In this document: positions 8,764 to 55,261 of the stretch, piece by piece
Position numbering within the stretch: position 1 is the stretch's first letter
Layout of the letters: each line of letters begins with the position of its first letter
Source: Crocinitomicaceae bacterium
GTDB lineage: Bacteria > Bacteroidota > Bacteroidia > Flavobacteriales_D > Sanyastnellaceae
Assembly (NCBI GenBank): GCA_002720375.1
Contig: PBIE01000044.1
Location: forward strand, 1 to 56,802
Reading direction: 5' to 3'
Length of the DNA stretch: 56,802 bases
Program-made: the position numbers and the translations under genes
The notes under the pieces: model-generated
Database searches by the model: none
What the model saw: the letters and a program-made list of their open reading frames with translations, nothing else
Told to the model about the DNA's origin: nothing

Positions 8764-10155
8764 TCAGGTATATGGTTTTTCTGCCACGAGCAGCAGGTTG
8801 CCGCACTCCTCTTCCATGCCCAAGCACTCTCCTGGGCGGTCTACGTAACCAATGCGGTGAACGTGAACAATGGTGAATCCGCAGGACTCCAAAAGGTCTA
8901 TAATGCCTTGCTTTGAGCAATAATGAAGAAAGGCCACCGTCTCTCCACCATGTCGTTTGTAAAATAAATCTCCTCTCTCATACCCTTCATTTCCAAGCTC
9001 CAACTCCTCAAAGAGATTCAATGCCTCAGGCCCCCACTCGTTGGGGTTTTCGAGATTGAACACATCCACATAAAATTTTCCACCGGGGCGCAATGCTGTG
9101 AATACTTTTTTAAGGCTTTTGCTTCTTTCTACGATGTTGGGAATGTGTCCAAATGCGTACAAAAATGTGATGGCGTCGAATGCACTTTTCTCTACATCAA
9201 TTTCATTCCAATGGCCAATGCGCGCATCCAAGCCTCGCTCCTTGGCCGCTTGCACCATGCCCAAGCTGATGTCCACCCCCTCCATTTTGTAGTTCCGCCG
9301 GGAACGCGTTTGGATATCCAAAGGACGCCGACCAGTGCCACATGCGATATGCAGAACACGACTGGGGTTTAGTTCGCCAAAGTCGGCCGCGATGATTCCA
9401 TTGATGCTGTTCGTGTATGCCCTGCGCTTCTCACTGCCCTGATCCAAATGATCATAGGTTTCGGCCTGTTCAGAATAATAGGCACTGATTGAGTGCAAAA
9501 TCTCCAAGCTCTTGGGCTTGGGAATCAAAGGGTAAAGCCTGTGGGTGCGATTGCCTCTCATTTCACTGATGGGGACAAAGGTGAAGGCATCCTTCTCGAG
9601 CCTTCTAAAACCAGCAGGGTCTTGCTCGAAGGAAGCTGTGGTGGCCTTCTCGTTGAGTTCTCCCAACCAACCATTTTCTGCATCGAAAAGGACCATACCG
9701 TCTAAGGTGTCCAATGCAGGGGCATAGAAATGAACCGTAACAAGCGGCTGATTGGCGCTCGGGTTTACAATCTTGTGAATGGTTCCATCTGGTTCTGGTA
9801 AAACCCCTCCAGCCCGGACCCGCAAGGCTTGTCCCTCTCTCAACTCCCTCCGCTCCTTGTCATATGTGTATTCCACATTTTCCACCTCGCCCTGAACGCA
9901 GAGTACGTATCCCCAGAAGCCCTCGTGATGGTGAATGGCGCTCTCCACACCAGGTGGCCAGTGGAGTACCACAATCTCGAAGGGGTTAAGCAGCAATATG
10001 TTGCGGGCATAGTTTGTGGTCATGCCCTCAATGGAGGGGATGCAACCCCTAAGGTCCAAGTCCTCAAGTTTTATGGAGCGAACCAACCGACCGAGCCAAT
10101 CGAAATCGAATCTCTCTGGCGTCGTTTTGCGTATGGTCTCAATCAAAGCTTGCAT
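8764..10155 (-). CDS. Fusion protein: cysteine-dioxygenase-like cupin domain plus class I SAM-dependent methyltransferase domain
   Basis: 463 aa. N-terminal half: YARNILL, VLHWPPGVESAIHHHEGFWGYVLCVQGEVENVEY, TIHKIVNP (cupin, CDO-like His cluster). C-terminal half: motif I VLHIACGTGRRPLDI, GVDISLGMV, FLYAFGHI, LRPGGKFYVDVF. Confidence 0.75.
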   Translation of the reverse strand: MQALIETIRKTTPERFDFDWLGRLVRSIKLEDLDLRGCIPSIEGMTTNYARNILLLNPFEIVVLHWPPGVESAIHHHEGFWGYVLCVQGEVENVEYTYDKERRELREGQALRVRAGGVLPEPDGTIHKIVNPSANQPLVTVHFYAPALDTLDGMVLFDAENGWLGELNEKATTASFEQDPAGFRRLEKDAFTFVPISEMRGNRTHRLYPLIPKPKSLEILHSISAYYSEQAETYDHLDQGSEKRRAYTNSINGIIAADFGELNPSRVLHIACGTGRRPLDIQTRSRRNYKMEGVDISLGMVQAAKERGLDARIGHWNEIDVEKSAFDAITFLYAFGHIPNIVERSKSLKKVFTALRPGGKFYVDVFNLENPNEWGPEALNLFEELELGNEGYERGDLFYKRHGGETVAFLHYCSKQGIIDLLESCGFTIVHVHRIGYVDRPGECLGMEEECGNLLLVAEKPYT

Positions 10156-11950: not shown

Positions 11951-14527
11951 TTAATGCATGAGGGCCAGGCGCAAAACAGATCCACTTCCTGTGTGCTCGA
12001 TAGCGTGCAGGGTGTAGACACCTGTTGGATGGTGCGACAAGTTCCAATCTAGCGATTGACCCGACATCCACATTTGGTCGACCATTCGACCCGCACCATC
12101 CCTCAAAACAAGATGTCCTTCGAAGTGGATACCAAATGTCAGATATAGCGACTTCCGAACGGGGTTCGGTGACGCCAGCATTTTGATGCCCGCCTGCTCG
12201 GAAATGCCCACCGGTACTTCCACCGTAATCGACACCGAACAACCGGTGTCGTCGGTCACTGTCAAGGTCCACTCTCCTGCCCCAAGGTCGTCTGGATCTT
12301 CCTGGCCAGCGTTACCATTGGGACCGGACCAAGAGAAATCATATGGCTCCGCACCTCCGGTTACTGTCACCGACACTTCACCATTTTCCTCATTGAGATT
12401 GGACCCTTCAATCGAATCGACCGTCACAGTCATTCCCGGCGGATCGACCACAGCAATGCTCGCCATATCAGTACATGTCGTTCCTGACGTCATCAAGACA
12501 GTCACTTCCACCGCATATTCACCAGCCGACAATTCGAGGAAGTTGCCTCCAATATCAGCCGACACGCCGTTCAAGGAATAGCCGATCACTGTCACGGAAT
12601 CAGATACGAAGGCCGAGATGTTGCCGTCATCTCCCCCGGCGCACTGCGGCGCAGAGGCCAAAAGAAACAGGGCCGGGTCCGGTGCGGGTTCGATTGTGAA
12701 TACCACCACTGCTCCACAGGTGGAATCTCCGTCCAACACTTCAAGTAAATAGTCTCCCGGGGCCAGAGAGTCAAAGGGTTCTCCCGTCCACTCCCCATTT
12801 AGCGTCACGGGTCCGGCCAAACCAAAAAATACGGAATCTGTCAACGCAGAATCCACTGTTAGTTCAGCTGAGCCATCCGACTCACCAAAACAACTTTCGC
12901 CCGCTACAGAAAGATTCGACAGAACCAAGTCACAATACGTACAACTGCCATCTTCCGTGGTGGCTTGAGGATTGAAATTCGAGGCAGCCGCATCCGTGCA
13001 CCCCACGCAGGAAGTGAATTCACAGTTGTCTGCATTAATGGTTGCCTCTTCGTCAAAATTGCAAGCCTCTGGGTTCAAACATCCAGCGCATGAGGAATAC
13101 TCACAAAGGCCGCTTTCAATGGTGGCCTCAGAACTGAAATTGCAGGCAAGAGGGTCCGTACATCCATAGCACGTAAAGTCGCACAAATCAAAGTCATTGA
13201 TGAATGCCGTGCTGTCGAAATTGCACGCCGAAGCGAGGCCACAACCGGCGCAAGTGGCATAATCGCATGATCCGTCATCGAAGGTCAAGAATGGATTGAA
13301 GTTGCAAGCCAAAGAGTCTTGGCACCCTCCAACTTCTGCCCCATCGCAGACGAGAACGAAATCGAAGCCCCCCACGGCTGGTGTAACTGCATTGGATCCA
13401 CTAACATGAAGTAGATACTCCACCCCTTCCTCACTCTCCCACTCTATTTCAGAGGCGAGAAAATTTTCGTAGCACGGTTCAGCAAAAAAGTCAGCCTCAT
13501 CCTGATCGTCATTTCCCGCCACACAGTCCAAGTTGCCACACTCTCCTTCGTACACGCTCAGATAAGTGTCGTAGCCAGTGTCCTCAAAACACATGGTGGC
13601 GCGTAAAGTGTCACCAGTTCCAGTGATGGTATACCAGAGCCCGCCATGGAAATATTCGCCGATGTTGTACTGGTCACAGTACGCACTCTCAGTTGTATCC
13701 GCGCAAACTGTGGTTGCCGTTACAATTTGACTGCAGGCGATGGGCTCTGCCATTGCACATTCATCGTTGGCCACCGGAAGGCAGAATCCATTGCAATCAA
13801 ATCCGCCTGTAGCGTAATAGCAACTGCCGTCCTCTTCAGTGTATACTGGGGCCCAATTGCATGCTTCCGGATCCGTACAGCCGGGAAACTCAAATGGATC
13901 ACAAACGCCATCTGCATCGACATCGCACAGACAATTCCCATCACAATCAAAACAGAAGAATGGATGCTCACAGCTGCCATCATCATCCGTTGCCAACGGA
14001 TTGAAATTGCACGCGTCTTCTTCCGTGCATCCCGGCACAGAACAGTCGGGAATTAGAACACCCGCCAGCAAAATGTCGCCAAGGCTGTCTGGAAGCGCGA
14101 GTGACGTGTCAGTGAGCAAGTCCACCGTAAGCAATGAGCCGTCCTCTTCCCAAGTCATGCTGGCTGAATCAAGAGGAATGTCGCCCAAATCCACAAAGAG
14201 AGACAACGGTTCGTCACCAGTGGAAATTTCGATCGTGAAATGAACCGCAGAGTCACCATTGGAAGGGACGTGGTTTGTTTCAAAAAGCAGTCCTTCTGAA
14301 AGCAAGCATGCGTGAGTTCCGTTGGAATTCGAAGCGCAGATAACATCAATTCCATCATCGTAGCCTGCGGTCCCTGCCGTGTCCAGTACGAGTGTACATC
14401 CTGAGGTTCCCGAAACAAATTCAGCCAGAAAGGAAACGGTGCCTTGAGGCACGCAAAGTGAATCCTGCGCCATTCCGCCAATTGATCCGAAAAGGAGTAA
14501 CACAAAAGTTGAAATATTCGACTTCAT
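11951..14527 (-). CDS. Secreted mosaic T9SS cargo protein A (858 aa): 7 Cys-rich motifs, PPC-like domain, SprB-like repeats, type-A T9SS C-terminal domain
   Basis: ATG 14527 gives the signal peptide MKSNISTFVLLLFGSIGGMAQ. Cys motifs such as GCTEEDACNFNPLATDDDGSCEH lie at 13808-14035 and 12932-13327. PPC-like block NDECAMAEP...GLWYTITG...DTYLSVYEGECGNLDCVAGNDD at 13343-13771. SprB-like units (TVTGGAEPYDFSWSGPNG) at 12212-12931. CTD LASPNPVRKSLYLTF...GVYTLHAI at 11954-12190. Confidence 0.85.
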   Translation of the reverse strand: MKSNISTFVLLLFGSIGGMAQDSLCVPQGTVSFLAEFVSGTSGCTLVLDTAGTAGYDDGIDVICASNSNGTHACLLSEGLLFETNHVPSNGDSAVHFTIEISTGDEPLSLFVDLGDIPLDSASMTWEEDGSLLTVDLLTDTSLALPDSLGDILLAGVLIPDCSVPGCTEEDACNFNPLATDDDGSCEHPFFCFDCDGNCLCDVDADGVCDPFEFPGCTDPEACNWAPVYTEEDGSCYYATGGFDCNGFCLPVANDECAMAEPIACSQIVTATTVCADTTESAYCDQYNIGEYFHGGLWYTITGTGDTLRATMCFEDTGYDTYLSVYEGECGNLDCVAGNDDQDEADFFAEPCYENFLASEIEWESEEGVEYLLHVSGSNAVTPAVGGFDFVLVCDGAEVGGCQDSLACNFNPFLTFDDGSCDYATCAGCGLASACNFDSTAFINDFDLCDFTCYGCTDPLACNFSSEATIESGLCEYSSCAGCLNPEACNFDEEATINADNCEFTSCVGCTDAAASNFNPQATTEDGSCTYCDLVLSNLSVAGESCFGESDGSAELTVDSALTDSVFFGLAGPVTLNGEWTGEPFDSLAPGDYLLEVLDGDSTCGAVVVFTIEPAPDPALFLLASAPQCAGGDDGNISAFVSDSVTVIGYSLNGVSADIGGNFLELSAGEYAVEVTVLMTSGTTCTDMASIAVVDPPGMTVTVDSIEGSNLNEENGEVSVTVTGGAEPYDFSWSGPNGNAGQEDPDDLGAGEWTLTVTDDTGCSVSITVEVPVGISEQAGIKMLASPNPVRKSLYLTFGIHFEGHLVLRDGAGRMVDQMWMSGQSLDWNLSHHPTGVYTLHAIEHTGSGSVLRLALMH

Positions 14528-14587
14528 GAGGGTTTCCGAGGGTATTTCTTTAGCCATTAAGATACCTCGCCAGCCGATAATAAAGCA

Positions 14588-14615
14588 GAAACGCCGACCC
14601 AAAGGCCGGCGTTTC
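14588..14615 (-). terminator. Rho-independent terminator after cargo gene B
   Basis: Minus strand reads AACGCCGGCC-TTTG-GGTCGGCGTT, a 10-bp stem with one G-U pair, followed by TCTGCTTTATT. It lies between the stop at 14642 and the next start at 14527. Confidence 0.6.
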
Positions 14616-14641
14616 CAGAAACAACTGTAATGTCTGAATGA

Positions 14642-17600
14642 TCAGTGACGGATGATCAACTGCTGATTGGCAAAGGATTGTCCCGATGTCAGGCGTACCT
14701 GGTAGACTCCGTCGGCCAGATTAGAGAAGTCCATTTGAACCTTTCCAGATAGGGTCATGCCTTCTTGACGGAAGACCCTGCGTCCGGCGCCATCAAATAC
14801 CTCGATAGTCGCGTCCTGAACAAGCTTGTTCATTTCCATGACCAGTTGGCCGTCTGTTGGATTTGGCATCAAGGCAATTTCAAGATCGCCTACCACTTCG
14901 GTCAAGCCAACAGTGGTGAGTATTACCACTTCCGTCTCCTCACATCCGTTCTCGTCGGTCACAGTTAAGGAATAGGTTCCGTCCGTGAGTCCAGCGATGT
15001 CCTCTGTGTCATAGTTTCCTTCTGGGCCTTCCCAGGCGAATCCAAGATCGCCAGTTCCACCTTCAACAGATATAGAGATTTGACCGTTTGGTGCGCCATC
15101 AGGGTCAATCGTTTCATCCACGGTGATGACAATAGCATCAGGCTCCTCGACCGTGGCGTTGATGTCTGCCTCACAACCATTTTCGTCTGTAGCGAATATG
15201 GTGTAAGGGCCTGCATCCAAGTCTTGAAAGTTGCCGTCAACGCTGGTTTCACCTGCAAGCTCGTAGGTAATGAGACCGGTTCCACCTTCTGATGTAGCTA
15301 CAATAGAACCGTTGCTGTCTCCATTGCAATTGACATCGTTGGCAAAGGCGAAGAGCATGATTGCCGCTGGCTCATTCACCAAGACTTCGAGAGTATCTGT
15401 ACACATCAGTGAGTCCATGGCAATGATTTTGTACGAGTCACCAGCCAATTGCTCAAATGTGAGGTTGTTTTGGAACAGGCCATCATTGAGTGCATAATTC
15501 ACGGAGCCGTATCCTCCTGTGGAGCCAGACACCATGATGCTACCATCCATGTCGCCAGCACACGTAACATCAAAAACAATTGCCGCAGTATCTATCGCAA
15601 GCTCACAGTAGAGACAAGTCTCATCGTCGACTGTTGCTGTAGGATCGAAATTGGCCGCGTCGGCATCGGTGCATCCAAAACAGCTGTAATCGCAAAGGCT
15701 CACATCATAATCAGTGGCGGTTGAATCGTAATTGCATGCCGTATCATCCAAACATCCGGCGATTTCGTCTTCGTCACAGATCGTGTCTCCGTCTGCGTCA
15801 TTAACACAGTTGCCATCGCAATCCACATTGTCCGTTCCATAAAGGTCAATTGGGAACAAGCAACCCGCATCAATGGTGGCGGTAGAGTCGAAGTTACAGG
15901 CCAAAGCTTGCATACATCCTGCGCAGCTTTCGTATTCACAACTGCCATCATCTTCTGTTGCATCTGGGTTGAAGTTGCAGGCCTCTTCATACACACAGCC
16001 ATTTACTTCAGCCTCATCACACGTCCCATCGCCGTCTGCGTCGTTCAAGCAGTTGCCCAAGCAGTCATAATAGGCTGCTCCGTAAATGTCTTCAGGGAAA
16101 AGGCAAGACAACGCCACATTGATGGTCGCTGTACTGTCGTAGTTGCATGCCAATTCATTGAGGCAGCCAGCACAACTCTCGTATTCACAAGATCCATCGT
16201 CGGTGTCTGCTGCGGGATTCCAATTGCATGCATTGAGGTCCAAACAACCATCGATGGAGGGAAGTAGCACCGCGTCAATAACGTGTACCACACCGTTTTC
16301 TGCATACAAGTCTGCAATGATGATTTCCGCATCGTCAATAAAGACAGAGCCACCACTGAAGGTGATGGTGGCCATTTGACCGTTAATTGTTTCAACCATC
16401 ATGCCGTTTGTCAGCATGTCACTTGTAACGGAATCGGCCACAACGTGGTAGGTCAGAACACTTGCCAAGCTCAATGGGTCAGCCAAGAGAGCATCGACAA
16501 CGTATGAAGGCAATGCTTCAACAGCGGCATCGGTTGGTGCAAACACTGTCCATGCACCGCCGTAAGTAAGGGTACTGTCCAATTCTGCAAGCACAATCAA
16601 ATCTTCTAAAACCGTGTGAGCTTCGCTGTCCGCAATGATATCGAATACACTGGCTGCTGGGTATTCACACATGCCATCATCGTCTGTTGCAGCAGAGTCA
16701 TAGTTGAGTGCAGCACTGTCTGTACAACCAGCGACTTCTTCCTCGTCACAAACACCATCGGCATCAGCATCGTTCAGACAGTTGCCATCGCAGTCGAGAT
16801 AATCGACCCCATACACATCCTCCGAATAGAGGCAATCGTAATCTGGAGCTATACAAGCATCTCCGATGTTGAAGTTGAGGTATAGCGAATTGGCACCGAC
16901 TCCATTTTCAAAGATCTGAACGTAGAAATTGCCTTCAACCTCTCCATCCGTCGTCAATTGCGCAATCAAGACCTCATTGTTGGGGTGGCTCGCTGCAATT
17001 CCATTGTTGTCCCCGTTCAATGCAAACCAGCTGCCTCCAACAGCATCATCCATAACGATGTTACCTCCTGGTGTTCCAAACCCAGGGTCGAAGTTGACTG
17101 TCCATGGATTATCCGCACTTTCCACTGTAGATATGGCTGCCTCACCAATGGTCGAGACAGGAGACTCGCTTAAACCAATGGTCACCCAGCTGTCATACTG
17201 CAAATCGGGGAGCGTGCCGAACAAAAAGGACACAATCGAATTGGGCGTCACGCCTCCAACTTCGTCCTGATAGAATTCTGTAGTGGTCGTGACGACCGTT
17301 GGATTGTTAACGTCTCCGGACACAGAACTCACAAAATCCGCTGGGTTAGCGCACTTTACATAGTACCTATATGTCGTCATGCCCGCGAGGTTACCTGCGG
17401 AATGGACAAGCACAGTGTCAATGACCAAACAGTAATCATCTTCTTCCACCGCTGCAGTTGGATCATAGTTACAAGCGTAAGGGTCGCCACAGCCTTCCTC
17501 TTCATCACACAAACCGTCACCATCCTCGTCATTTATGCAATCGCCGTTGCAGTCCAAATAATCCGCAGCTGGGTAAGTACAAGAGCCATCGTCGTACACA

Positions 17601-18712
17601 GCATCCACATCGTAGTTGCACGCCATTGAATCCATGCAACCAAAGATTTCGGTCTCATCACAGACCCCATTGCCGTTGACATCATTGAGACAATTGCCAT
17701 CGCAGTCCTCATAAAGGTCGGCGTACGTGCAGCTGTCGTTGTCATCAATCGTGGCTGTGTCATCGTAATTACAAGCGGAAGCATCAGTGCAACCCACGCA
17801 CGAGTCATATTCGCATGAACCATCATCATCGGTGGCACTGGCGTTGTAGTTACAGGCTCCTGCCGTGGTACAACCAGATGTTTCGTTTTCGTCACAAATG
17901 CCATCCATATCGGCATCGTTTATGCAGTCCCCGTTACAATCCAAGTACGCCTCTTCTGGATAGGTGCAAGAACCATCATCAGCGTCTGCCGCCTCGTCAT
18001 AGTTGCATGCTGCGGCATCAGTGCAGCCCTCGACAGCGCCAGTAGGCCATACAAACGTTGGAAGGTCTCCATCAACTAGGTATTGGTCAGTTCCCACTCC
18101 TCCCATGAAAATCTGAGTGTACAAGGACACACTGAGTTCACCTGTTGTAGTGAATTGTCCGACCAGCACCTTGAGGTCTTCACCCGCGAAACCATTAGCA
18201 TCGCCATTCAATGCATACCATGCACCGCCAATTGCGTCATCAATTATAATGTTGCCTCCTGCTAAGCCTCCACCGGGATCAAACGTGGTTGTCCAGGGGT
18301 TGATGCTCGACTGCACTGTTGATATAGCAGCCTCTCCAGCAAGAGCATCGGGTATTCCCTGCAGCCCAATCGTGACCCAACTGTCGTATTCAGTATCAGG
18401 GAACGCCCCAAAAAGAAGGCTGTTGATCCCGTTCGGTGTCGCAGCACCCAAGACAGCATGAAAAAAGTCGGTCGTCGTCGTCACTGATGTCGGATTTGGC
18501 GCGTCACCAGATATGGAACTGAGGAAATCATTTTCATTTTCCATGGTGATGTAAGCCCGATAACAACTGTAACCGGTCAAATCAATCGTTGCCGTCGGAC
18601 CGACCAGAAGGCCAATATCATCAGAGACAACCTCCACTTCCAGACCATAAGTCTGGGCGGATATTAAGGATGGTAATAGGCACAGGGCCAAAAGGAGCTT
18701 ATGCAGCTTCAT
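14642..18712 (-). CDS. Secreted mosaic T9SS cargo protein B (1356 aa): two copies of unrecognised ~180-aa module, 12 Cys-rich motifs, 6 TSP3-like acidic inserts, FAS1 domain, SprB-like repeats, T9SS C-terminal domain
   Basis: Signal peptide MKLHKLLLALCLLPSLISAQ. Module copies at aa 21-210 and 430-610. FAS1 at aa 688-818. SprB-like units such as VTCAGDMDGSIMVSGSTGGYG and ISVEGGTGDLGFAWEGPEG. CTD LMPNPTDGQLVMEM...GVYQVRLTSG at 14645-14890. Confidence 0.9.
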   Translation of the reverse strand: MKLHKLLLALCLLPSLISAQTYGLEVEVVSDDIGLLVGPTATIDLTGYSCYRAYITMENENDFLSSISGDAPNPTSVTTTTDFFHAVLGAATPNGINSLLFGAFPDTEYDSWVTIGLQGIPDALAGEAAISTVQSSINPWTTTFDPGGGLAGGNIIIDDAIGGAWYALNGDANGFAGEDLKVLVGQFTTTGELSVSLYTQIFMGGVGTDQYLVDGDLPTFVWPTGAVEGCTDAAACNYDEAADADDGSCTYPEEAYLDCNGDCINDADMDGICDENETSGCTTAGACNYNASATDDDGSCEYDSCVGCTDASACNYDDTATIDDNDSCTYADLYEDCDGNCLNDVNGNGVCDETEIFGCMDSMACNYDVDAVYDDGSCTYPAADYLDCNGDCINDEDGDGLCDEEEGCGDPYACNYDPTAAVEEDDYCLVIDTVLVHSAGNLAGMTTYRYYVKCANPADFVSSVSGDVNNPTVVTTTTEFYQDEVGGVTPNSIVSFLFGTLPDLQYDSWVTIGLSESPVSTIGEAAISTVESADNPWTVNFDPGFGTPGGNIVMDDAVGGSWFALNGDNNGIAASHPNNEVLIAQLTTDGEVEGNFYVQIFENGVGANSLYLNFNIGDACIAPDYDCLYSEDVYGVDYLDCDGNCLNDADADGVCDEEEVAGCTDSAALNYDSAATDDDGMCEYPAASVFDIIADSEAHTVLEDLIVLAELDSTLTYGGAWTVFAPTDAAVEALPSYVVDALLADPLSLASVLTYHVVADSVTSDMLTNGMMVETINGQMATITFSGGSVFIDDAEIIIADLYAENGVVHVIDAVLLPSIDGCLDLNACNWNPAADTDDGSCEYESCAGCLNELACNYDSTATINVALSCLFPEDIYGAAYYDCLGNCLNDADGDGTCDEAEVNGCVYEEACNFNPDATEDDGSCEYESCAGCMQALACNFDSTATIDAGCLFPIDLYGTDNVDCDGNCVNDADGDTICDEDEIAGCLDDTACNYDSTATDYDVSLCDYSCFGCTDADAANFDPTATVDDETCLYCELAIDTAAIVFDVTCAGDMDGSIMVSGSTGGYGSVNYALNDGLFQNNLTFEQLAGDSYKIIAMDSLMCTDTLEVLVNEPAAIMLFAFANDVNCNGDSNGSIVATSEGGTGLITYELAGETSVDGNFQDLDAGPYTIFATDENGCEADINATVEEPDAIVITVDETIDPDGAPNGQISISVEGGTGDLGFAWEGPEGNYDTEDIAGLTDGTYSLTVTDENGCEETEVVILTTVGLTEVVGDLEIALMPNPTDGQLVMEMNKLVQDATIEVFDGAGRRVFRQEGMTLSGKVQMDFSNLADGVYQVRLTSGQSFANQQLIIRH
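16259..16651 (-). other. Fasciclin (FAS1) domain inside protein B
   Basis: aa 688-818: VFDIIADSEAHTVLEDLIVLAELDSTL...WTVFAPTDAAVEAL...LTYHVV...NGVVHVIDAVLLP. These match the FAS1 H1, H2 and YH conserved blocks. Confidence 0.8.
16883..17425 (-). other. Unrecognised ~180-aa module, copy 2 of protein B (internal)
   Basis: MTTYRYYVKCANPADFVSSVSGD...LQYDSWVTIGLSE...GGSWFALNGDNNG...VLIAQLTTDGEVEG. It can be aligned along its whole length to copy 1 by eye. Confidence 0.7.
18083..18652 (-). other. Unrecognised ~180-190-aa module, copy 1 of protein B
   Basis: Shared motifs with three other copies in the window: T(Y)R.Y, DF[LV]S[SA][IV].GD, P[DE][LT].YDS[WFY]VTIG[LM], GE..I..V, W...F[DE]PG, GG[AS]W[FY].LNGD.NG.AG....VL[IV][GA]Q[FL]TT.G. 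Confidence 0.7.
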
Positions 18713-18882: not shown

Positions 18883-21336
18883 TTACTGCTTGACCACACG
18901 AATCACCTCCGTGGTGTTGGCCACATCAATACGCAAGAAATAAACACCGGACTCAAAACCGGCCAAGTCCATTCGTTCCATATGTGTTCCATTCAAATTA
19001 CCCAAGTCGTCACGGCTCACTTCACGGCCGAGGGCATCCACGATTACGGTGGATACAGACTCACCGGCAAGCCCAGAAAATTGAATCTCCACGTTGCCAC
19101 GGGTTGGGTTTGGAAACAGGGTCACCTCAACCAAGTTGAGAACCTCGTCAAGTCCACTCACCACGACAATCGTCGTGCTTGTGAACTCACATCCATTAGC
19201 GTCGGTAACGGTTACCGTGTAGTCACCTGCCGCAACACTTGAGGCGTCCTCATCTGTGCTCGTGAATCCTGGGCCTACCCAACTGTAGGAATATGGCGCT
19301 GTTCCGCCCGTGACGGAAATGTCAATCACACCGTCAGCCTCAGTCCCAGTGGCACCGTCATTGGCATCCACCGTTACCTCGATGGCGTCAGGAGATTCAA
19401 TGGTGACCGTTGTCGCGTTGCTGCACTCATTGTCGTCTTGGACCTCAATTGGGTAGGATCCTGCTGCCAATCCGCTTGCTTCGTTGCCGGGTCCGAAACC
19501 TGCATCGTTGATGTTGTAGGCATACCCCATTCCGCTGCCGCCAGTAGCGCTTACCACGATGGCTCCAGTTTCGTCTCCGTTGCAAAGAACATCCGTGACA
19601 GACGCATCAATTGTAATGTCTGCTGGCTCTTCAAGTGTGAGACTCGCATCGAAAATGCAACCGTTGCCATCAACAACTTCAATGGCAAAGTCTCCGCCTC
19701 CGACCATGCTCAAAATGACGTTGTCAAGGCTATCTCCATTATAAACATACACAAGCGGTGCGGTGCCGCCTTGGACCTCTAAGGCAACGGAACCGTCTGT
19801 ACCGCCGAAACAAGTGGGGCTCACAAGCTCAGCGAGCGACTCAAATTCAGATGGACTGCCAACTGTGACATCCACGAGCGTATCTGCACATCCATTCACA
19901 TCCTGAGCATAGAAGGTGTAGGTCCCTGCAGCCACTGTGAAGGTGTTTTCTGCGCTCATCGGCAAACCATCGGTGCCATATGTTGTGCCATTTCCACTGC
20001 CTCCAAAGTAGTTGAGGACAACAATCCCGTCCTCAGATCCCGGACAAAGGGTCGGGGCAACACCTTGGGCGTAAAGGTTGAAAGGTTGAGGCTGACTCAC
20101 CTGAATTCCAGGCGTATTGTCCATGCAACCATTGGCGTCCAACGCATATACGGTGTAAAGGCCAACACCCACATTTTCGAAAAGAAGTGTTTCAGACCCC
20201 ATTTCGAAATAAAGGCCTGCACCTGTATCTACTGGAGCTGTCATGCTGTACATCACAACACCTGTTCCGCCGGAGCTCATGCCACTCAGGACAGCGTCAG
20301 ATTCACCATTGCAGCTGATTGGGTCAGCCAAACTGGCAGTCACCACCAAAGGGTCAGGCGTTCCAACACCAAGGGTGGTGTCGACTGAACAGCCCACATT
20401 GTCAGTCACCGTTATTGTGACATCTCCTGCTGGAACTGAATTGAAAAGTCCAGTGGCGTTGGAGCTTACTCCGGTACTGAACATTAAGCTCCCCTGTCCC
20501 CCGGAGACTTCCAATGAAATCGTGCCGTCTGCATAGCCGCTGCATGTTACATCTCCAGTCGCAGCGGAGGTGATGACCAACTGAGTAGCTTCAAAATCAC
20601 AAGCGAAAACACAGGTTCCATCATCGTTTGTGGCGTCCATATTGAAGTTTGTGGCAGCCATGTCTGTGCAGCCGAAAATGGCGCCTGGGATACTGCTAAA
20701 AGGGAGCGTGATCAGCGTATCATTGTTTTGGTCCCCTCCTACGAAGGTCGCTACGCTTACAACGCCGAACAACGTCGTGTCCGTCGTGAATTGACCAATG
20801 AGCACCGTGCTGTCGGGTCCTGCGTATCCATTGTTATCCGGATAAAGAGGAAACCAACTGCCACCCGTTTGGGTATCGATAATCAAGTCAGATCCCGTCA
20901 TACCAGCGCCTGGCTCAAACGCAGGAACCCAATCGGACAAAGGATCACCAATGGAGTTAATTGTTTGCTCTCCAGCCTCACTGTTTGCTGGGGAATCCAT
21001 TCCGATGGTCACGAAACTGTCGTATTCCAAATCGGGAGATACAGGAAAGACCAGTGAGTTATAACCCTCATTTGTTAAGCCCCCTAAAGCGCTATGGAAA
21101 AAGTTATTGCCCCCCTGTATGATGGTGGGGAAATCAGCATCGCCGTATACGGCAGTCAAGAAATCGTCTGGTGAATTAAATTTTACGTAGAGACGATACG
21201 TGTTGTAACCTGTAAGGTCTACAGTTCCTACAACACCGATGTTTTCGGCATAGGTCTCCACGATAATTTCCGTGGCTTGAGAATAAGCAAGGGTGCTGCA
21301 GAAAACTGCAATCACACCGAGTAGCAATCGCTTCAT
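18883..21336 (-). CDS. Secreted T9SS cargo protein C (817 aa): unrecognised ~180-aa module, one Cys-rich motif, about 6 SprB-like repeat units, T9SS C-terminal domain
   Basis: ATG 21336 gives the signal peptide MKRLLLGVIAVFCSTLAYSQ. Cys motif GCTDMAATNFNMDATNDDGTCVF at 20605-20673. SprB-like units (VTCSGYADGTISLEVSGGQG, LCNGDETGAIVVSATGGSG, ISVTGGTAPYSYSWVGPG) at 19165-20601. CTD LFPNPTRGNVEIQF...GVYFLRID at 18886-19134. Confidence 0.9.
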   Translation of the reverse strand: MKRLLLGVIAVFCSTLAYSQATEIIVETYAENIGVVGTVDLTGYNTYRLYVKFNSPDDFLTAVYGDADFPTIIQGGNNFFHSALGGLTNEGYNSLVFPVSPDLEYDSFVTIGMDSPANSEAGEQTINSIGDPLSDWVPAFEPGAGMTGSDLIIDTQTGGSWFPLYPDNNGYAGPDSTVLIGQFTTDTTLFGVVSVATFVGGDQNNDTLITLPFSSIPGAIFGCTDMAATNFNMDATNDDGTCVFACDFEATQLVITSAATGDVTCSGYADGTISLEVSGGQGSLMFSTGVSSNATGLFNSVPAGDVTITVTDNVGCSVDTTLGVGTPDPLVVTASLADPISCNGESDAVLSGMSSGGTGVVMYSMTAPVDTGAGLYFEMGSETLLFENVGVGLYTVYALDANGCMDNTPGIQVSQPQPFNLYAQGVAPTLCPGSEDGIVVLNYFGGSGNGTTYGTDGLPMSAENTFTVAAGTYTFYAQDVNGCADTLVDVTVGSPSEFESLAELVSPTCFGGTDGSVALEVQGGTAPLVYVYNGDSLDNVILSMVGGGDFAIEVVDGNGCIFDASLTLEEPADITIDASVTDVLCNGDETGAIVVSATGGSGMGYAYNINDAGFGPGNEASGLAAGSYPIEVQDDNECSNATTVTIESPDAIEVTVDANDGATGTEADGVIDISVTGGTAPYSYSWVGPGFTSTDEDASSVAAGDYTVTVTDANGCEFTSTTIVVVSGLDEVLNLVEVTLFPNPTRGNVEIQFSGLAGESVSTVIVDALGREVSRDDLGNLNGTHMERMDLAGFESGVYFLRIDVANTTEVIRVVKQ
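20725..21276 (-). other. Unrecognised ~180-aa module, copy in protein C
   Basis: TVDLTGYNTYRLYVKFNSPDDFLTAVYGD...LEYDSFVTIGMDS...GGSWFPLYPDNNGYAGPDSTVLIGQFTTDT. Confidence 0.7.
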
Positions 21337-21449
21337 GCGTTGTTTGGTGTTAATTGTGAATCGATGCGCAATATAGACGCATCGAAGCACTCGTTCTATT
21401 CAATTCGTCTCATAGTAATGAAGGAATTTTCAAAGTGTCGGTAAGAGAA

Positions 21450-21498: not shown

Positions 21499-23253
21499 TT
21501 ACTTCACCGTTAGACGCAACGTGCTTCTGCGCATGCCATTCCGAACCTCGAAGAGATAAACACCAGATCGAAAGGCCTCCAGACTGTAGACTGACACCAA
21601 TCCAGGCACCACACGGGTGCGTTCGAATAAGACAACCTTACCGAAAAGATCGAATACGCGGATGTCCACGAGACCATCAAATCCATCAAAACGGACATTG
21701 AGCTGATCATCTGCGGGATTGGGGTATGCCTGCAGCCCTATAAAGTCCCTTACCTGCTCTATATCAACAACCGTGCTGACGGTGTCTCCATAGCAATCGA
21801 GACAACTTCCATAGCAGTAAGCGCCGAGCACTTCAGGTTGTCCTGATCGGACATGACTCCGATTAAATTCACCGAAAGGATTGGCCTGTCCACATCCACC
21901 TGATTCGAAATCGCCTAGCTCAGCGACGCTGTCGTCTTGGACACCATCGGGATAAGGGTCACCATTGCAAAATCGATATTCAAAAAACGCTGCTCCGGAC
22001 ACCTCGTAGGTCACATCGAATACGTTGTCTCCGTCTGTGTCGCTCATCTCCAAGGCACCCGCTTGCCACTGAGGCGATGTCATTCCACCAATCAACCAAA
22101 CTCCGTTTTCCGATACTGTTTCGTTGGTCATGTCCACTTGAAATACAATCGTTGCAGGCTCTGGATCTGCCACGCAGGTCTCAGAGCACTGATTGTAGCA
22201 ATATTGAACGGTGAGCGGATCACCCGTAACTGAGAACGCGCGGTTGCCATCTGTTGTGCATTCTCCCGGAGGGTTTTCATTGTCGATGTTGCCTTCTCCG
22301 TCCCCTCCCCAATTGTTGCCGTTAATAAACTTGAACTGATGATTCCCGGGAACCACGTCGATGGTAGCCTCATATATAAGGTCTCCATCATCATCGCTAA
22401 GAAAATCCACGCCTGGGGTCCACCCTTGGAAACTGCCGGCCACACAAACACCATTTCCAGAGACAGAAGCTTGTGTGCTCATGTCCACGCGGAACGTGAC
22501 CGCGCTCGGAGCGATGCATCCTCCGCACTGGTTGTAACAATGTGCTTGGCCAGCCGCAACCTCATACACCAAGTCTCCCCCATCAAGAGGCAAAAACCGA
22601 TTGCCCTGATTGGCGCACTCCCCTTCTAGATTTTCATCGAAGCCCCATGCATTTCCATTGACGAACTTGAACATGGCAGTGTCTACGGGATCGGTTGCCG
22701 CCCCATCAATGGTGGCGACATACGTATAAACCAGATCACCATCAGCGTCGTCCATCATCAGGAAGTTTGCTCCATCCCAAGCATTGAAGTTTCCATTCAT
22801 GTGCACGCCTACTGGGTTGATGGCATCCTCTTGACTCATGTCGACTTTAAACAAGACCGTGGTCGTGCCGCAGGCGCCACATTGACCAAAGCAAGGTGTG
22901 TCCAACGCCATCTCCCCCTCCAATTCGAAGTACCGGTTGGAGCCTCCATTCCAAGCACATGCTTCAGGCGCTGATTCATCCGCCCCCCATGCGTTTCCAT
23001 TGATGAACTTATACTCCACGATGTCGATTGTATCCGCCACATCTACAGTGACTTCATAAACCCCATCCATGTTGGTATCGGCCATTGGTGTCAAGGCGGG
23101 ATCCCAACCTTGGAAGTTGCCAGCGACATGCACGCCTACCGCATCATCGACGGCCTGATTGTTCATATCCACGCTGAATGTCACGGATACAGTCTGTGCC
23201 TGCACGGTCCATTCTAGAACCATTGCAAGCCAAAAGAAGGATGTTAATCTCAT
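21499..23253 (-). CDS. Secreted T9SS cargo protein D (584 aa) with four tandem CBM48/CBM20-like (AMPK-beta glycogen-binding-like) modules
   Basis: Signal peptide MRLTSFFWLAMVLEWTVQAQ. Four ~110-120-aa repeats, each F.VDM...GV.[VM].G.F..W......M.D.DGD.[VI]Y......G...FKF[IV]NGN.WG..E...C....NR...C[YF].[QS]C..C. CTD AYPNPADDQLNVRF...GVYLFEV at 21502-21747. Confidence 0.88.
   Translation of the reverse strand: MRLTSFFWLAMVLEWTVQAQTVSVTFSVDMNNQAVDDAVGVHVAGNFQGWDPALTPMADTNMDGVYEVTVDVADTIDIVEYKFINGNAWGADESAPEACAWNGGSNRYFELEGEMALDTPCFGQCGACGTTTVLFKVDMSQEDAINPVGVHMNGNFNAWDGANFLMMDDADGDLVYTYVATIDGAATDPVDTAMFKFVNGNAWGFDENLEGECANQGNRFLPLDGGDLVYEVAAGQAHCYNQCGGCIAPSAVTFRVDMSTQASVSGNGVCVAGSFQGWTPGVDFLSDDDGDLIYEATIDVVPGNHQFKFINGNNWGGDGEGNIDNENPPGECTTDGNRAFSVTGDPLTVQYCYNQCSETCVADPEPATIVFQVDMTNETVSENGVWLIGGMTSPQWQAGALEMSDTDGDNVFDVTYEVSGAAFFEYRFCNGDPYPDGVQDDSVAELGDFESGGCGQANPFGEFNRSHVRSGQPEVLGAYCYGSCLDCYGDTVSTVVDIEQVRDFIGLQAYPNPADDQLNVRFDGFDGLVDIRVFDLFGKVVLFERTRVVPGLVSVYSLEAFRSGVYLFEVRNGMRRSTLRLTVK
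21793..23190 (-). repeat. Four tandem protein-level repeats (carbohydrate-binding-module-like) in protein D
   Basis: Repeat boundaries are about aa 22-128, 131-246, 251-360 and 368-487. Each has the GSF.GW / HQFKFINGNNWG-type signature and four conserved Cys. Confidence 0.8.
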
Positions 23254-23290: not shown

Positions 23291-25192
23291 ATGCCTGTTG
23301 CACTTCGTCGATTGGAGTTATTGACCGTCGCCATTGGATTCTTCCTCGCTGGAGGTTTAGCACCTCATATTTGTCTTGCTCAATCCGAAAGTCCCACAGT
23401 GGTCAAGATGGAGCCCCCCCACTGGTGGAATGAGGGGACCGAAATGGCTTTTGTCTTGGTTCTTCATGGCGAAAACCTAGCCGATTGCACGGTGTCAACA
23501 CAAGCGCAAGGAATTCGTGTTTTATCCAACGAGCGCAGGTCCAGCCCCGATTTTCTCTTTGTTCGACTTGGAATCGAGTCTGGATGCCTGCCTGGAGACA
23601 AATATTTAATCCTCATGGATAACAGCGGCCACCAGCGCGATATCGTCTACCCCATCCGCGATGGGCGCATGCGTCCAATATGCGGTCAAGGCGTGGAATC
23701 AGGCTCTACCATGTACCTCATTATGCCCGATCGCTTTGCCAATGGCGATGAAGAAAACGACATGGGAGATGACCTTTTAGAAACCGGGGTCGATCGCGAG
23801 ACAATCGATGCGCGGCATGGGGGTGACCTGATCGGAATCAGTTCAAACGTGGATTATTTGGACGCATTGGGAGTGGATGCCGTCTGGCTGAACCCGGTTC
23901 TCCTTAACGACCAGCCTCGATGGAGCTATCATGGATATGCAGTGACAAACCACTACAAAGTCGACCCCAGGCTCGGCGGAAATGATGCCTACAAAAACAT
24001 GATTTCTATCTTCCACACCAGAGGCATACGGGTCATTCAGGACATCATCCTTAATCATTGGGGGCGCAACCATTGGATGCTGAACCCCCCTCCGGACAGC
24101 AGCTGGCTTCACCACTGGCCAGAATTTACACTGACCAACTACAACTGTAACGTGATGACTGACCCCCATGCAGTTGAACAAGAGGTCCTTGAGTTTAATC
24201 GGGGGTGGTTTGTCAAAGAAATGCCTGACTTGTCACCGAATGAAGATGCCATTCTCGCAGACATCCTGGTCCAAAATGCCCTCTGGTGGATCTCAGAGGC
24301 CGGTGTGGATGGATTTCGAATCGACACCTACCCATACTCCGATCAAGATTTTATGGTCTCCTTTGCCGACCGGATTCTCCGGCAACACCCGAATGCCTTT
24401 CTGTTTGGTGAATGCTGGGTGTCGAGCCCTTCTGCACAATCCGTATACCTTTCAGGAAGCGCGCTAGCATCGAGGGACACCCACCTGGAGAGCATTAAGG
24501 ATTTCCAGCTGTATTTCGCCATTCGGGACATGATTCAAGAGCCCCCTTCATGGCGAACGGGCATAACCCGCGTACACGGCATTCTGGGCCAGGATGGCGT
24601 CTACCCAAATCCTAACCGCTTGGTCACCTTTGTAGACAATCATGATACGGACCGCTGGCGGAGCACTGCTGGAGACCTCCAAAGAACCCGGTATGGCATT
24701 GGACTGGTGATGATGACCCGAGGCATTCCTTGCCTGTACTATGGGACAGAAATTGGAATGACGGGATTCGCAGCACCGGACGGCTTGGTGCGATGCGATT
24801 TTCCTGGCGGATGGACAGGAGACGCCAAAAATGCCTTCAACTCAACAGATCGAAACAAGGAGCAAGAGTCCCTTTGGCAATTCACGGCTTCACTCGGTCA
24901 GGCCCGTCGACGCTTTCGCGATGCCTTCTCTTCCCCGATGTCCCACCTCATTCCCAGAAATGGTCAGTATCATTTTTTGAGATCAGATGGCGAGCACCAC
25001 CTTTTGATTTTAACGAATGCGTCGGATAAGTCAACCGATTTGGATTGGTATCAGGTCGATCCACTCCGCAATGGTGCCAAGACATGCACTTCTCTCCTCG
25101 GGGAGTCTGGAGATGGGCCCGATTACCTCGACTGGGGCGCGCAACTCAAGCTAGAGCCTTGGCACTTCCAAGTCTACCTCATTGAGGACTGA
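23291..25192 (+). CDS. GH13 alpha-amylase-family glycoside hydrolase (cyclomaltodextrinase/neopullulanase-like) with signal peptide
   Basis: 633 aa. Motifs DRFANGD, HGGDLIGISSNVDYLDALGVDAVWLNPV, YHGYAVTNHYKVDPRLGG, region I VIQDIILNHWG, nucleophile region GVDGFRIDTYPY, acid/base FLFGECW, and region IV FVDNHDTDR. Confidence 0.92.
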   Translation: MPVALRRLELLTVAIGFFLAGGLAPHICLAQSESPTVVKMEPPHWWNEGTEMAFVLVLHGENLADCTVSTQAQGIRVLSNERRSSPDFLFVRLGIESGCLPGDKYLILMDNSGHQRDIVYPIRDGRMRPICGQGVESGSTMYLIMPDRFANGDEENDMGDDLLETGVDRETIDARHGGDLIGISSNVDYLDALGVDAVWLNPVLLNDQPRWSYHGYAVTNHYKVDPRLGGNDAYKNMISIFHTRGIRVIQDIILNHWGRNHWMLNPPPDSSWLHHWPEFTLTNYNCNVMTDPHAVEQEVLEFNRGWFVKEMPDLSPNEDAILADILVQNALWWISEAGVDGFRIDTYPYSDQDFMVSFADRILRQHPNAFLFGECWVSSPSAQSVYLSGSALASRDTHLESIKDFQLYFAIRDMIQEPPSWRTGITRVHGILGQDGVYPNPNRLVTFVDNHDTDRWRSTAGDLQRTRYGIGLVMMTRGIPCLYYGTEIGMTGFAAPDGLVRCDFPGGWTGDAKNAFNSTDRNKEQESLWQFTASLGQARRRFRDAFSSPMSHLIPRNGQYHFLRSDGEHHLLILTNASDKSTDLDWYQVDPLRNGAKTCTSLLGESGDGPDYLDWGAQLKLEPWHFQVYLIED

Positions 25193-54538: not shown

Positions 54539-54880
54539 TCATTCGAGCAGCCGGACAACCTGTTGGTTGCCGAAGTCGAATTGCATCCTGTCCGGAGCTG
54601 TACTTCCCAAGTTGAACTCATATATCTGTTCGCCTTCGGCCAGGGTCAATTCCATGGGGTCGCCCCCCTCCCACCGTACGACACAATGCCCCTTTGTTGG
54701 GGAATCAATTCGGACCTCTGCCTTATCTTCTGTTGCCATTTTGCAGGACACCACGCGCGCATAGCTTCCCGAGATTCGCCCCTTCGTCATCATGGCCAAA
54801 AACCGACGATACAAAACGAAAATGAACATCGCCATCAAGGCGACAAACAAGACTTGGGAGAGAAGGTCCAAGTTGGGCAT
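54539..54880 (-). CDS. Hypothetical single-pass membrane protein
   Basis: 113 aa with N-terminal TM LLSQVLFVALMAMFIFVLY. Its stop abuts the argS stop. No family recognised. Confidence 0.5.
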   Translation of the reverse strand: MPNLDLLSQVLFVALMAMFIFVLYRRFLAMMTKGRISGSYARVVSCKMATEDKAEVRIDSPTKGHCVVRWEGGDPMELTLAEGEQIYEFNLGSTAPDRMQFDFGNQQVVRLLE

Positions 54881-54889
54881 AGTGACAAA

Positions 54890-55162
54890 TCAAAGTGCGA
54901 AGATGCCGCCAATCCTTCCAACCGCCTCATAACGGTCAAACACCGCGTCTGCAGAAGACAGCGTTTCCGTTACGGTCAAGGATACGTACTTGCCTCCCCC
55001 ACTCGACTTTCGCTCTACCTGGACACTGTCGGGAAAGACCGAAAGCACCGCCCCAATTTGATCTTCTTGATTCGGTGCAATGAACTTGAACATGTACTCC
55101 GACGGCCATTGATGATGCGCATCGAGTTGTGCTCTGAGTCCAGCTCTTTTGTCCTCCTCCAT
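54890..55162 (-). CDS. DUF493 (YbeD-like) family protein
   Basis: 90 aa. WPSEYMFKFIAP and an overall ACT-like pattern typical of DUF493. Confidence 0.72.
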   Translation of the reverse strand: MEEDKRAGLRAQLDAHHQWPSEYMFKFIAPNQEDQIGAVLSVFPDSVQVERKSSGGGKYVSLTVTETLSSADAVFDRYEAVGRIGGIFAL

Positions 55163-55188
55163 GGCGTGAAAATACCCGAGGAAAATGG

Positions 55189-55214
55189 AAAGGGGCGCCC
55201 ACGGGCGCCCCTTT
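55189..55214 (-). terminator. Rho-independent terminator after cargo gene E
   Basis: GGGGCGCC (55192-55199) / GGCGCCCC (55204-55211) with a 4-nt loop. The minus strand continues TTTCCATTTTCC. It lies about 50 nt downstream of the stop at 55262. Confidence 0.7.
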
Positions 55215-55261
55215 CACTGGTTCAAGTGAGAAGGATGTGGTCTCCTCCCTTGCAGGTGTTA

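Follow-up and report, generated by a model that had tools for sequence, protein, structure and literature searches.

A short cysteine-rich module of predicted marine bacterial surface proteins shares its sequence and modelled fold with the perforin-2 linker

The contig PBIE01000044.1 of a marine metagenome-assembled genome labelled Crocinitomicaceae bacterium (assembly GCA_002720375.1), a stretch of 56,802 nucleotides analysed over its full length and referred to below as the window, carries on its minus strand four genes (A, B, C and E) whose products contain many copies of a cysteine-rich module. The module is about 23 residues long and follows the pattern G-C-[TM]-D-x-x-A-[C/x]-N-[YF]-[DN]-x-x-A-x-x-D-D-G-S-C. 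An earlier note, made from the letters of this DNA, had singled it out. We find that it defines a separate family, very large and not yet curated, of beads predicted to hold one disulfide each; extracellular building blocks of this general kind are familiar. There are solid grounds, in sequence and in a structural model, for regarding the module as the same unit as the linker between the MACPF and MABP/P2 domains of MPEG1/perforin-2.

Genes and module copies in the window

Genes A to D are consecutive on the minus strand and are entered in GenBank as MBK12938.1 to MBK12941.1, all four as “hypothetical protein” (exact-sequence look-up). A profile hidden Markov model (HMM) built from 18 strict copies was run over all six reading frames of the window, and acidic inserts of calcium-loop type were located with a regular expression (regex). 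The genes and arrays are the following.

11951 to 14602, minus strand: protein A, an open reading frame (ORF) of 883 residues; the GenBank start at 14557 gives 868 residues (MBK12938.1); seven modules and one calcium loop.
13814 to 14032, minus strand: array 1 of A, with a module at 13964-14032, an EF-hand-like calcium loop insert at 13889-13945 and a module at 13814-13882; the two modules have HMM scores of 43.4 and 43.8 bits.
12935 to 13327, minus strand: array 2 of A, five abutting modules with C-x-G-C junctions, at 13259-13327, 13178-13246, 13097-13165, 13016-13084 and 12935-13003 (HMM); the last copy lacks the Cys at module position 8 (Cys8) and is followed by a SprB-like region.
14642 to 18712, minus strand: protein B, 1356 residues (MBK12939.1).
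17426 to 18028, minus strand: array 1 of B, five modules, at 17960-18028, 17807-17875, 17726-17794, 17573-17641 and 17426-17494 (HMM).
17882-17938, 17648-17704 and 17495-17551, minus strand: the three calcium loops of that array (regex).
16661 to 16801, minus strand: array 2 of B, a calcium loop at 16736-16792 and one two-Cys module at 16661-16729 (HMM, regex), between the second copy of a globular domain, here called NDOM, and the fasciclin domain.
15608 to 16249, minus strand: array 3 of B, six modules, at 16181-16249, 16100-16168, 15932-16000, 15851-15919, 15689-15757 and 15608-15676 (HMM), between the fasciclin domain and the SprB repeats.
16007-16063 and 15764-15820, minus strand: the two calcium loops of that array (regex).
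18883-21390, minus strand: protein C, with one module, four SprB repeats and a type IX secretion system (T9SS) tail (Pfam).
20605 to 20673, minus strand: the single two-Cys module of C (37.4 bits), between NDOM and the SprB repeats.
55262 to beyond 56802, minus strand: protein E, which runs off the window end.
56606 to 56802, minus strand: N-terminal modules of E, one cut by the window end (from 56759), then 56687-56755 and 56606-56674.
55358 to 56017, minus strand: array of E, eight modules, at 55949-56017, 55799-55867, 55727-55795, 55652-55720, 55580-55648, 55505-55573, 55433-55501 and 55358-55426.
55874-55933, minus strand: the one calcium loop of that array (regex).

Altogether the window holds 31 copies, seven in A, 12 in B, one in C and 11 in E (10 complete and one cut). 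The earlier note had arrived at the same numbers, with at least 10 in E; the span that it gave, 12932-18028, takes in the copies of A and B (12935-18028) and leaves those of C and E outside. Profile matches are confined to the coding frames of the four genes, and a degenerate DNA pattern, allowing up to two mismatches, matched 17 times, on the minus strand only, against 0.00 matches expected from 100 dinucleotide-preserving shuffles. The three-Cys flavour, which has Cys8, and the two-Cys flavour, which lacks it, account for 18 and 12 of the 30 complete copies, respectively. These flavours had been described beforehand, as had the C-x-G-C junctions (EYDSCVGC, EYESCAGC, EYSSCAGC, FTSCVGC and DYSCFGC) and the acidic inserts, of which the window holds eight (regex). 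In the array of E, from 55799 on, copies of the DDG[ST]C type alternate with a shorter type that ends in VEGxC or NSGC.

At the DNA level the copies have diverged far from each other. Pairwise nucleotide identity averages 56% and reaches 71% at most, identity at the third base is 43% at positions with the same residue, every synonymous codon is in use at the invariant G1, C2, A7, N9 and C21, and Tandem Repeats Finder detected no repeat of module length. With synonymous sites saturated and no DNA repeat, the copies are old and have been kept by selection on the protein, as had been proposed from the letters.

In order, protein B consists of a putative signal peptide, NDOM, an array, a second NDOM, a calcium loop with one module, a fasciclin domain (PF02469, residues 700-818, Pfam), an array, SprB repeats and a T9SS tail. 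NDOM is a beta-rich domain of about 200 residues with four copies in the window, two in B and one each in C and E.

18035 to 18649, minus strand: NDOM copy 1 (B residues 22-226), with a module directly after it.
16793-17413 (B), 20680-21273 (C) and 56021-56572 (E), minus strand: the other NDOM copies.

Among its 82 homologues, none has a Pfam assignment on NDOM, and those with a name all come from marine Flavobacteriales or Crocinitomicaceae. The AlphaFold2 model of NDOM is very confident, with a predicted local distance difference test score (pLDDT) of 95.3 and a predicted template-modelling score (pTM) of 0.90, and a fold search of the PDB returned no significant match (best E = 0.012, TM-score at most 0.35), the weak matches being cohesin-, pilin- or adhesin-like beta-sandwiches. 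NDOM may be a new fold family. A module stands directly after every NDOM of the window and after nearly every NDOM in 17 related ORFs; comparison of paralogues shows that from one to about 10 modules, with or without calcium loops, then precede the next globular domain. Everywhere in this set the module lies between globular domains, as already remarked on, or directly after one. Its copy number varies among paralogues, and in related genomes it runs from 1 to 34 per ORF.

Consensus, cysteine pairing and fold

To define the consensus, we used 3,230 canonical modules from diverse proteins (library proteins P0121-P0270). C2 and C21 are invariant, and G1 (99%), Y/F10 (99%), N9 (96%), A14 (96%) and A7 (92%) are nearly so. 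Conservation is lower at D/N11 (85%), D18 (82%), G19 (80%), S20 (80%), T3 (74%), D17 (72%), D4 (67%) and Y/F23 (58%), and C8 is present in 43%. A Cys at position 16, found in 13% of these modules, constitutes a further flavour outside the two-/three-Cys scheme.

Cysteines were then counted from each module to the next in 692 modules of 124 proteins. Where Cys8 is present, the Cys count of the following stretch is odd in 403 of 410 cases (one Cys at C-x-G-C junctions, three in acidic inserts); where it is absent, the count is even, and nearly always zero, in 97 of 102. This parity rule is highly significant (Fisher p = 4e-89), its odds ratio ranging from 52 to 1100 across two data sets, with the value of 52 obtained in the second and more diverse set of 3,127 junctions. 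The counts fit, as the predicted arrangement, a C2-C21 staple in every module and, where Cys8 is present, a second bond from it to the segment that follows. The earlier note had spoken of a disulfide-knotted bead on the strength of mostly even Cys counts; the parity rule bears out the even counts, and “knotted” is too strong for a core with a single predicted staple.

For structure prediction, AlphaFold2 was given an alignment of 63 in-register units, each made up of a module, C-x-G-C, a second module, an acidic insert and a third module, cut from the window proteins and their homologues. The resulting model of B residues 278-381 has a mean pLDDT of 92.1, with no residue below 70, and a pTM of 0.59, which means that the beads are well defined and their mutual orientation is uncertain. 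A consistent and confident fold, looked for by modelling a multi-copy segment and searching it with Foldseek as had been suggested, was thus obtained. Against the PDB, Foldseek returned only two matches, both to MPEG1/perforin-2 (6u23_A and 6u2k_B), with a root-mean-square deviation of 0.5-0.6 Å and 42% identity over 24 columns. A single-module profile from 127 modules, run against 177,635 PDB sequences, likewise matched only MPEG1 (human E = 3.9e-6, mouse E = 9.8e-5); it resolved the weak PDB E-values of 0.18-0.47 given by a three-module profile. The AlphaFold2 weights used here are older than these MPEG1 entries, so that the agreement between model and structure is probably independent.

In MPEG1 the matching segment comprises residues 331-353 of the human 6U23 chain and, in mouse, residues 332-354 of 6SB3 and 3-25 of 6SB1. 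From the construct of Ni et al. (2020), an ectodomain of residues 20-652 plus three vector residues, it corresponds to about residues 348-370 of mouse MPEG1, and ends where those authors place the end of a “MACPF-EGF region (31-371)”. The same paper and later ones label the segment “EGF-like” or “truncated EGF-like” (EGF, epidermal growth factor) and describe a small folded linker, which joins MACPF to MABP/P2; according to a later cryo-EM paper, it becomes unresolved in the pore state. Hence the module, which is unnamed in databases, has one copy in a solved structure, a precedent that the earlier description of the module had lacked. No MACPF domain was matched by Pfam in A, B, C or E, and no MACPF signature (regex) was present in any fetched protein or locus.

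The acidic insert has the consensus YxDCxGxCLNDxDGDGxCDExExxGC (n = 45), in which D11, G16, C18 and E22 are invariant. It conforms to the pattern of the 12-residue EF-hand loop (D1, D/N3, D/N5, G6, D9 and E12), with a Cys at the usually hydrophobic position 8. Its profile picked out the calcium sites of anthrax protective antigen and C2 toxin and the loops of lanmodulin in the PDB at sub-significant E-values (0.6-2.3), and homologues of a window array carry precomputed matches to PF03495, PF18884, PF00036 and PF13405 (best 120 of 2,283). In a Marine Group IIb archaeon, modules without Cys8 alternate with Cys-free DYDLDDDGVLDADEV loops, so that the parity rule is obeyed again. By consensus, the insert matches an EF-hand-type calcium loop and is predicted to bind calcium.

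Distribution, family status and gene neighbourhood

A profile search of 1.84 billion cluster representatives (50% identity) returned 34,627 proteins at E ≤ 0.001, 14,802 at 1e-10 and 4,587 at 1e-30; the highest copy number was 120 modules, in one protein of 6,618 residues. Scanning one genome per species with the DNA pattern gave at least 120 matches. Those listed are mostly from Flavobacteriales (Crocinitomicaceae, Cryomorphaceae), the others being from Saprospiraceae, Chitinophagales, at least seven Neomarinimicrobiota, at least eight or so Marine Group II/III archaea and at least two Patescibacteria. Outside Bacteroidota the partner domains are beta-propellers with PKD, cupredoxins with PKD, LTD, LVIVD and YHYH, all of them extracellular. 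One contig (L031, CAXPZW010000015.1) from a metagenome-assembled genome (MAG) labelled Luminiphilus was left out of the taxonomic breadth; its module ORF ends in a Bacteroidota T9SS sorting tail, and the contig is probably mis-binned. Five module-rich loci from MAGs labelled Comamonadaceae (L017, L018, L056, L084 and L111) were left out as doubtful.

Viruses also carry the module. Foldseek matched 13 BFVD models at E < 0.001, several from Virus NIOZ-UU157, including a protein that bears a crassvirus muzzle C-terminal domain; the others belong to uncultured or unnamed viruses. Weaker BFVD matches (E 0.1-1.9) include cyanophage proteins and two giant-virus MACPF proteins. Many viral contigs are among the matches listed in an IMG/VR pattern scan. 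A tblastn search of the INPHARED phage collection with two module arrays found no match, probably because the repeats are short and diverged and because of the BLAST complexity filter. Together with metazoan MPEG1, the family spans bacteria, archaea, viruses and animals.

No curated family covers the module, in keeping with its having first been reported as not assignable to a named domain. Pfam and NCBIfam, at E ≤ 0.1 over A, B and C, place nothing on the arrays, their matches (SprB, fasciclin, T9SS tail) lying elsewhere; no Pfam model falls on the module in six further module-rich proteins, and PHROGs gave no family for it. Literature searches, in full text with motif strings and on the topic of cysteine-rich repeats of marine Flavobacteriia, yielded no relevant paper. 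Among the best 120 of 2,283 homologues of one array, source names are almost all “hypothetical protein”, and the few Pfam matches fall on calcium-binding families or the T9SS tail. The Pfam family PsaN (PF05479, profile positions 73-100) does exceed its gathering cut-off of 21 on two arrays, at 24.1 and 44.3 bits (L116:2030-5497, residues 930-957, and P0187, residues 710-735), with no single stretch significant. We rejected this identity, since a weak pattern is summed over many repeats and the PsaN match in the PDB, with the three-module profile, has E = 1.8; the matches are probably false positives that may mislead automatic annotation.

Outside the arrays, the module-bearing genes and their neighbours include the following features.

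14645 to 14866, minus strand: T9SS C-terminal sorting domain of B (PF18962 / TIGR04183, E = 2e-11).
18886-19119, minus strand: T9SS C-terminal sorting domain of C (PF18962 / TIGR04183, E = 3.2e-11).
21499-23253, minus strand: protein D, a T9SS cargo with repeated CBM48/AMPK1_CBM-type glycogen- or starch-binding modules.
55265 to 55348, minus strand: C-terminus of E, a Cys-flanked dockerin/EF-hand-like loop and helix, CPGDLNGDGTININDLLDFFQIYGTACP, with no T9SS tail.

In protein A, Pfam recognises a single SprB repeat and, weakly (E = 0.062), a T9SS tail at 11954-12169; the N-termini of A to D, judged by eye, resemble Bacteroidota signal peptides. Between its two arrays A also contains a Cys-rich globular region (residues 264-425, 13328-13813, minus strand) with no Pfam match and, among the fetched loci, one weak relative (L019, 29% identity). 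A cyclomaltodextrinase-type alpha-amylase gene (23291-25192, plus strand) directly adjoins D; the adhesin-like genes that bear the module thus neighbour an alpha-glucan utilisation pair.

Protein E has no Pfam match at all. Homologues P0011 and P0005 end in tails like that of E, and in P0265 a related tail is matched weakly by Dockerin_1 (E = 0.0021). Such a dockerin-like tail, set beside the weak cohesin-like matches of NDOM, is a hint that a cohesin-dockerin-like surface assembly might form; a cohesin-like reading of NDOM as the partner of this tail was not adopted, as no fold match was significant. A 317-residue ORF at 54563-55516 (plus strand), with no Pfam match, shares about 255 bases with the 3’ end of E, which lies on the other strand, and is probably spurious or later-starting. 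Elsewhere in the window, an ORF at 8764-10155 (minus strand) fuses a cysteine-dioxygenase-type cupin (PF05995) to an S-adenosylmethionine-dependent methyltransferase domain.

Role of the arrays and comparison with known systems

Because copy number varies, partners are diverse, the MPEG1 copy acts as a linker and the pTM of the model is low, we favour a connector function: the arrays of beads and calcium loops would serve as spacers or stalks between globular domains, a reading to which we give a probability of about 0.65. The module would be a self-contained extracellular mini-domain of about 23 residues, closed by the Cys2-Cys21 disulfide round a tiny core of Ala7, Asn9, Tyr/Phe10 and Ala14 and containing an Asp-Asp-Gly-Ser turn. 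Where Cys8 is present, it would bond to a Cys of the following C-x-G-C junction or acidic insert. One bead would cap the C-terminal end of each globular domain, and runs of beads, together with disulfide-tethered EF-hand-type loops (D-x-D-x-D-G-x-C-D-x-x-E), would make up stalks of differing length that resist proteases. Seawater is oxidising and rich in calcium, and there such stalks might hold NDOM, fasciclin and SprB-type repeats off the cell surface, to which a T9SS tail would direct three of the four proteins (A weakly).

Several observations weigh against this picture. The disulfide pairs are predictions from Cys arithmetic, and 9-17% of the junctions in the larger set violate the parity rule, part of which is explained by crude calls of module boundaries. 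The Foldseek E-values for MPEG1 (7.5-8) are not significant, because the match spans 24 residues; the case for identity is made by the root-mean-square deviation, the sequence profile and the fact that MPEG1 is the sole match. As for the calcium loops, Pfam at E ≤ 0.1 gives no such match in the window proteins, and the PDB matches of the insert stay below significance (E 0.6-2.3). Finally, Asn9, the aromatic at 10 and Asp17-Asp18, which are strongly conserved and of surface type, might just as well belong to a binding site.

The last of these points leads to the alternative that survives best, namely that the module serves chiefly to bind a ligand, such as algal polysaccharides or particles, with a conserved Asn/aromatic face and arrays that provide avidity. 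The high conservation of Asn9, Tyr/Phe10 and, to a lesser degree, Tyr/Phe23 (58%) would suit such a face, the host proteins are adhesin-like (SprB repeats, fasciclin), the neighbouring genes encode a CBM48 protein and an alpha-amylase, and avidity would favour copy numbers as high as the 120 observed. However, a 23-residue fold with one disulfide needs conserved small and aromatic residues as its core, the single MPEG1 copy is described only as an inter-domain linker, partners so diverse across archaea, bacteria, viruses and animals make a common ligand unlikely, and no carbohydrate-binding family matched the module proteins in Pfam or NCBIfam. We therefore regard a primarily ligand-binding role as unlikely.

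A little less probable again is that the module itself binds calcium, through Asp4, Asp/Asn11 and Asp17-Asp18, and forms rods of the cadherin or thrombospondin (TSP) type-3 kind, the folding of which would depend on calcium rather than on disulfides. These positions are indeed acidic and conserved (67%, 85%, 72% and 82%, respectively), and true DxDxDG loops constantly accompany the module, archaea included. Their spacing is unlike DxDxDG, however, as position 14 is Ala; the copies of E that end in VEGxC or NSGC dispense with DDG and keep the remainder of the pattern; AlphaFold2 folds the module confidently without ions; and the MPEG1 passages mention no bound calcium, although no search was aimed at calcium there.

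That the module is a genuine, if degenerate, EGF-like domain seems very improbable, even though the perforin-2 literature gives the matching segment that name. EGF-like domains contain six Cys in three disulfides over some 30-40 residues. In the module only two Cys are invariant, over 21 residues, with no more than one in addition; the PDB profile search returned no EGF-containing chain, only MPEG1, and no Pfam EGF family fell on any of the 12 module-rich proteins scanned (E ≤ 0.1 for A, B and C; E ≤ 0.01 for E and six other module-rich proteins). The “EGF-like” label of the perforin-2 linker does not fit the Cys pattern. Lastly, a structurally meaningless compositional or low-complexity artefact or recent DNA repeat, as the richness of the module regions in Asp, Cys and Asn might suggest, is refuted by the shuffles (0 matches against 17), the restriction to coding frames, the saturated codons without a DNA-level repeat, and the module’s presence in 34,627 library clusters.

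Returning to the bead-and-stalk reading, we can tentatively, and with less confidence than we attach to the stalk role, extend it to a joint one. On this view animals would possess a single member, the “truncated EGF-like” linker of perforin-2, of an immense cross-domain family that has no name and whose beads carry one disulfide each; the family abounds in marine Flavobacteriales, Marine Group II/III archaea, Marinimicrobia, phages and giant viruses. The junction of a globular domain with a bead, MACPF-bead in MPEG1 and in giant viruses and NDOM-bead in the present proteins, would be an ancient mobile unit, and arrays of beads and EF-hand loops would be calcium-tuned stalks that set the distance of binding domains from the surfaces of planktonic cells and virions.

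Small disulfide-bonded linker repeats are familiar extracellular building blocks, and the principle is not new. What is new here is a family without a Pfam, NCBIfam or PHROGs entry and with no description in the literature searched, together with a structural precedent in perforin-2 that had not been recognised. With the family defined, long stretches of many giant surface proteins of abundant ocean microbes and viruses could be annotated, the “EGF-like” label of the perforin-2 linker corrected and thousands of natural variants of that linker made available for study; a likely source of false PsaN annotations would also vanish. If the stalks are indeed rigid rows of beads and calcium loops, variation in their length would be a testable trait of how marine Bacteroidota and phages reach particles, polysaccharides and hosts.

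Four known systems invite comparison. Firstly, the SprB/T9SS adhesin repeats (PF13573) occur in the same proteins and share the cell-surface, T9SS-secreted context, but have the motif C-x-G-x-x-x-G-x-I and match outside the module arrays (B 1124-1152, C 597-631). Secondly, EGF-like domains (PF00008, PF07645) are likewise small, disulfide-stabilised and extracellular, stand in tandem between globular domains and are in some cases calcium-associated; they differ in having six Cys, three disulfides and about 40 residues, against two or three Cys and about 23 residues in the module. Thirdly, the DxDxDG loops of TSP3 repeats and EF-hands (PF18884, PF02412, PF03495, PF00036) share the consensus to which D-x-D-x-D-G-x-C-D-x-x-E of the insert conforms, and TSP3 repeats are disulfide-tethered, as the insert would be; this likeness concerns the insert and not the module, and the window inserts fall short of a Pfam match at E ≤ 0.1. 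The closest system is the MPEG1 linker. It differs in being a single copy, with no array and no calcium loop, in a eukaryotic pore-forming protein, but it has the same sequence pattern (G-C-T-[DN]-x-x-[AS]-x-N-[FY]-N-x-x-A-x-x-D-D-x-S-C) in the two-Cys flavour, and it follows immediately on one globular domain, MACPF, which it joins to the next, just as the module does after NDOM.

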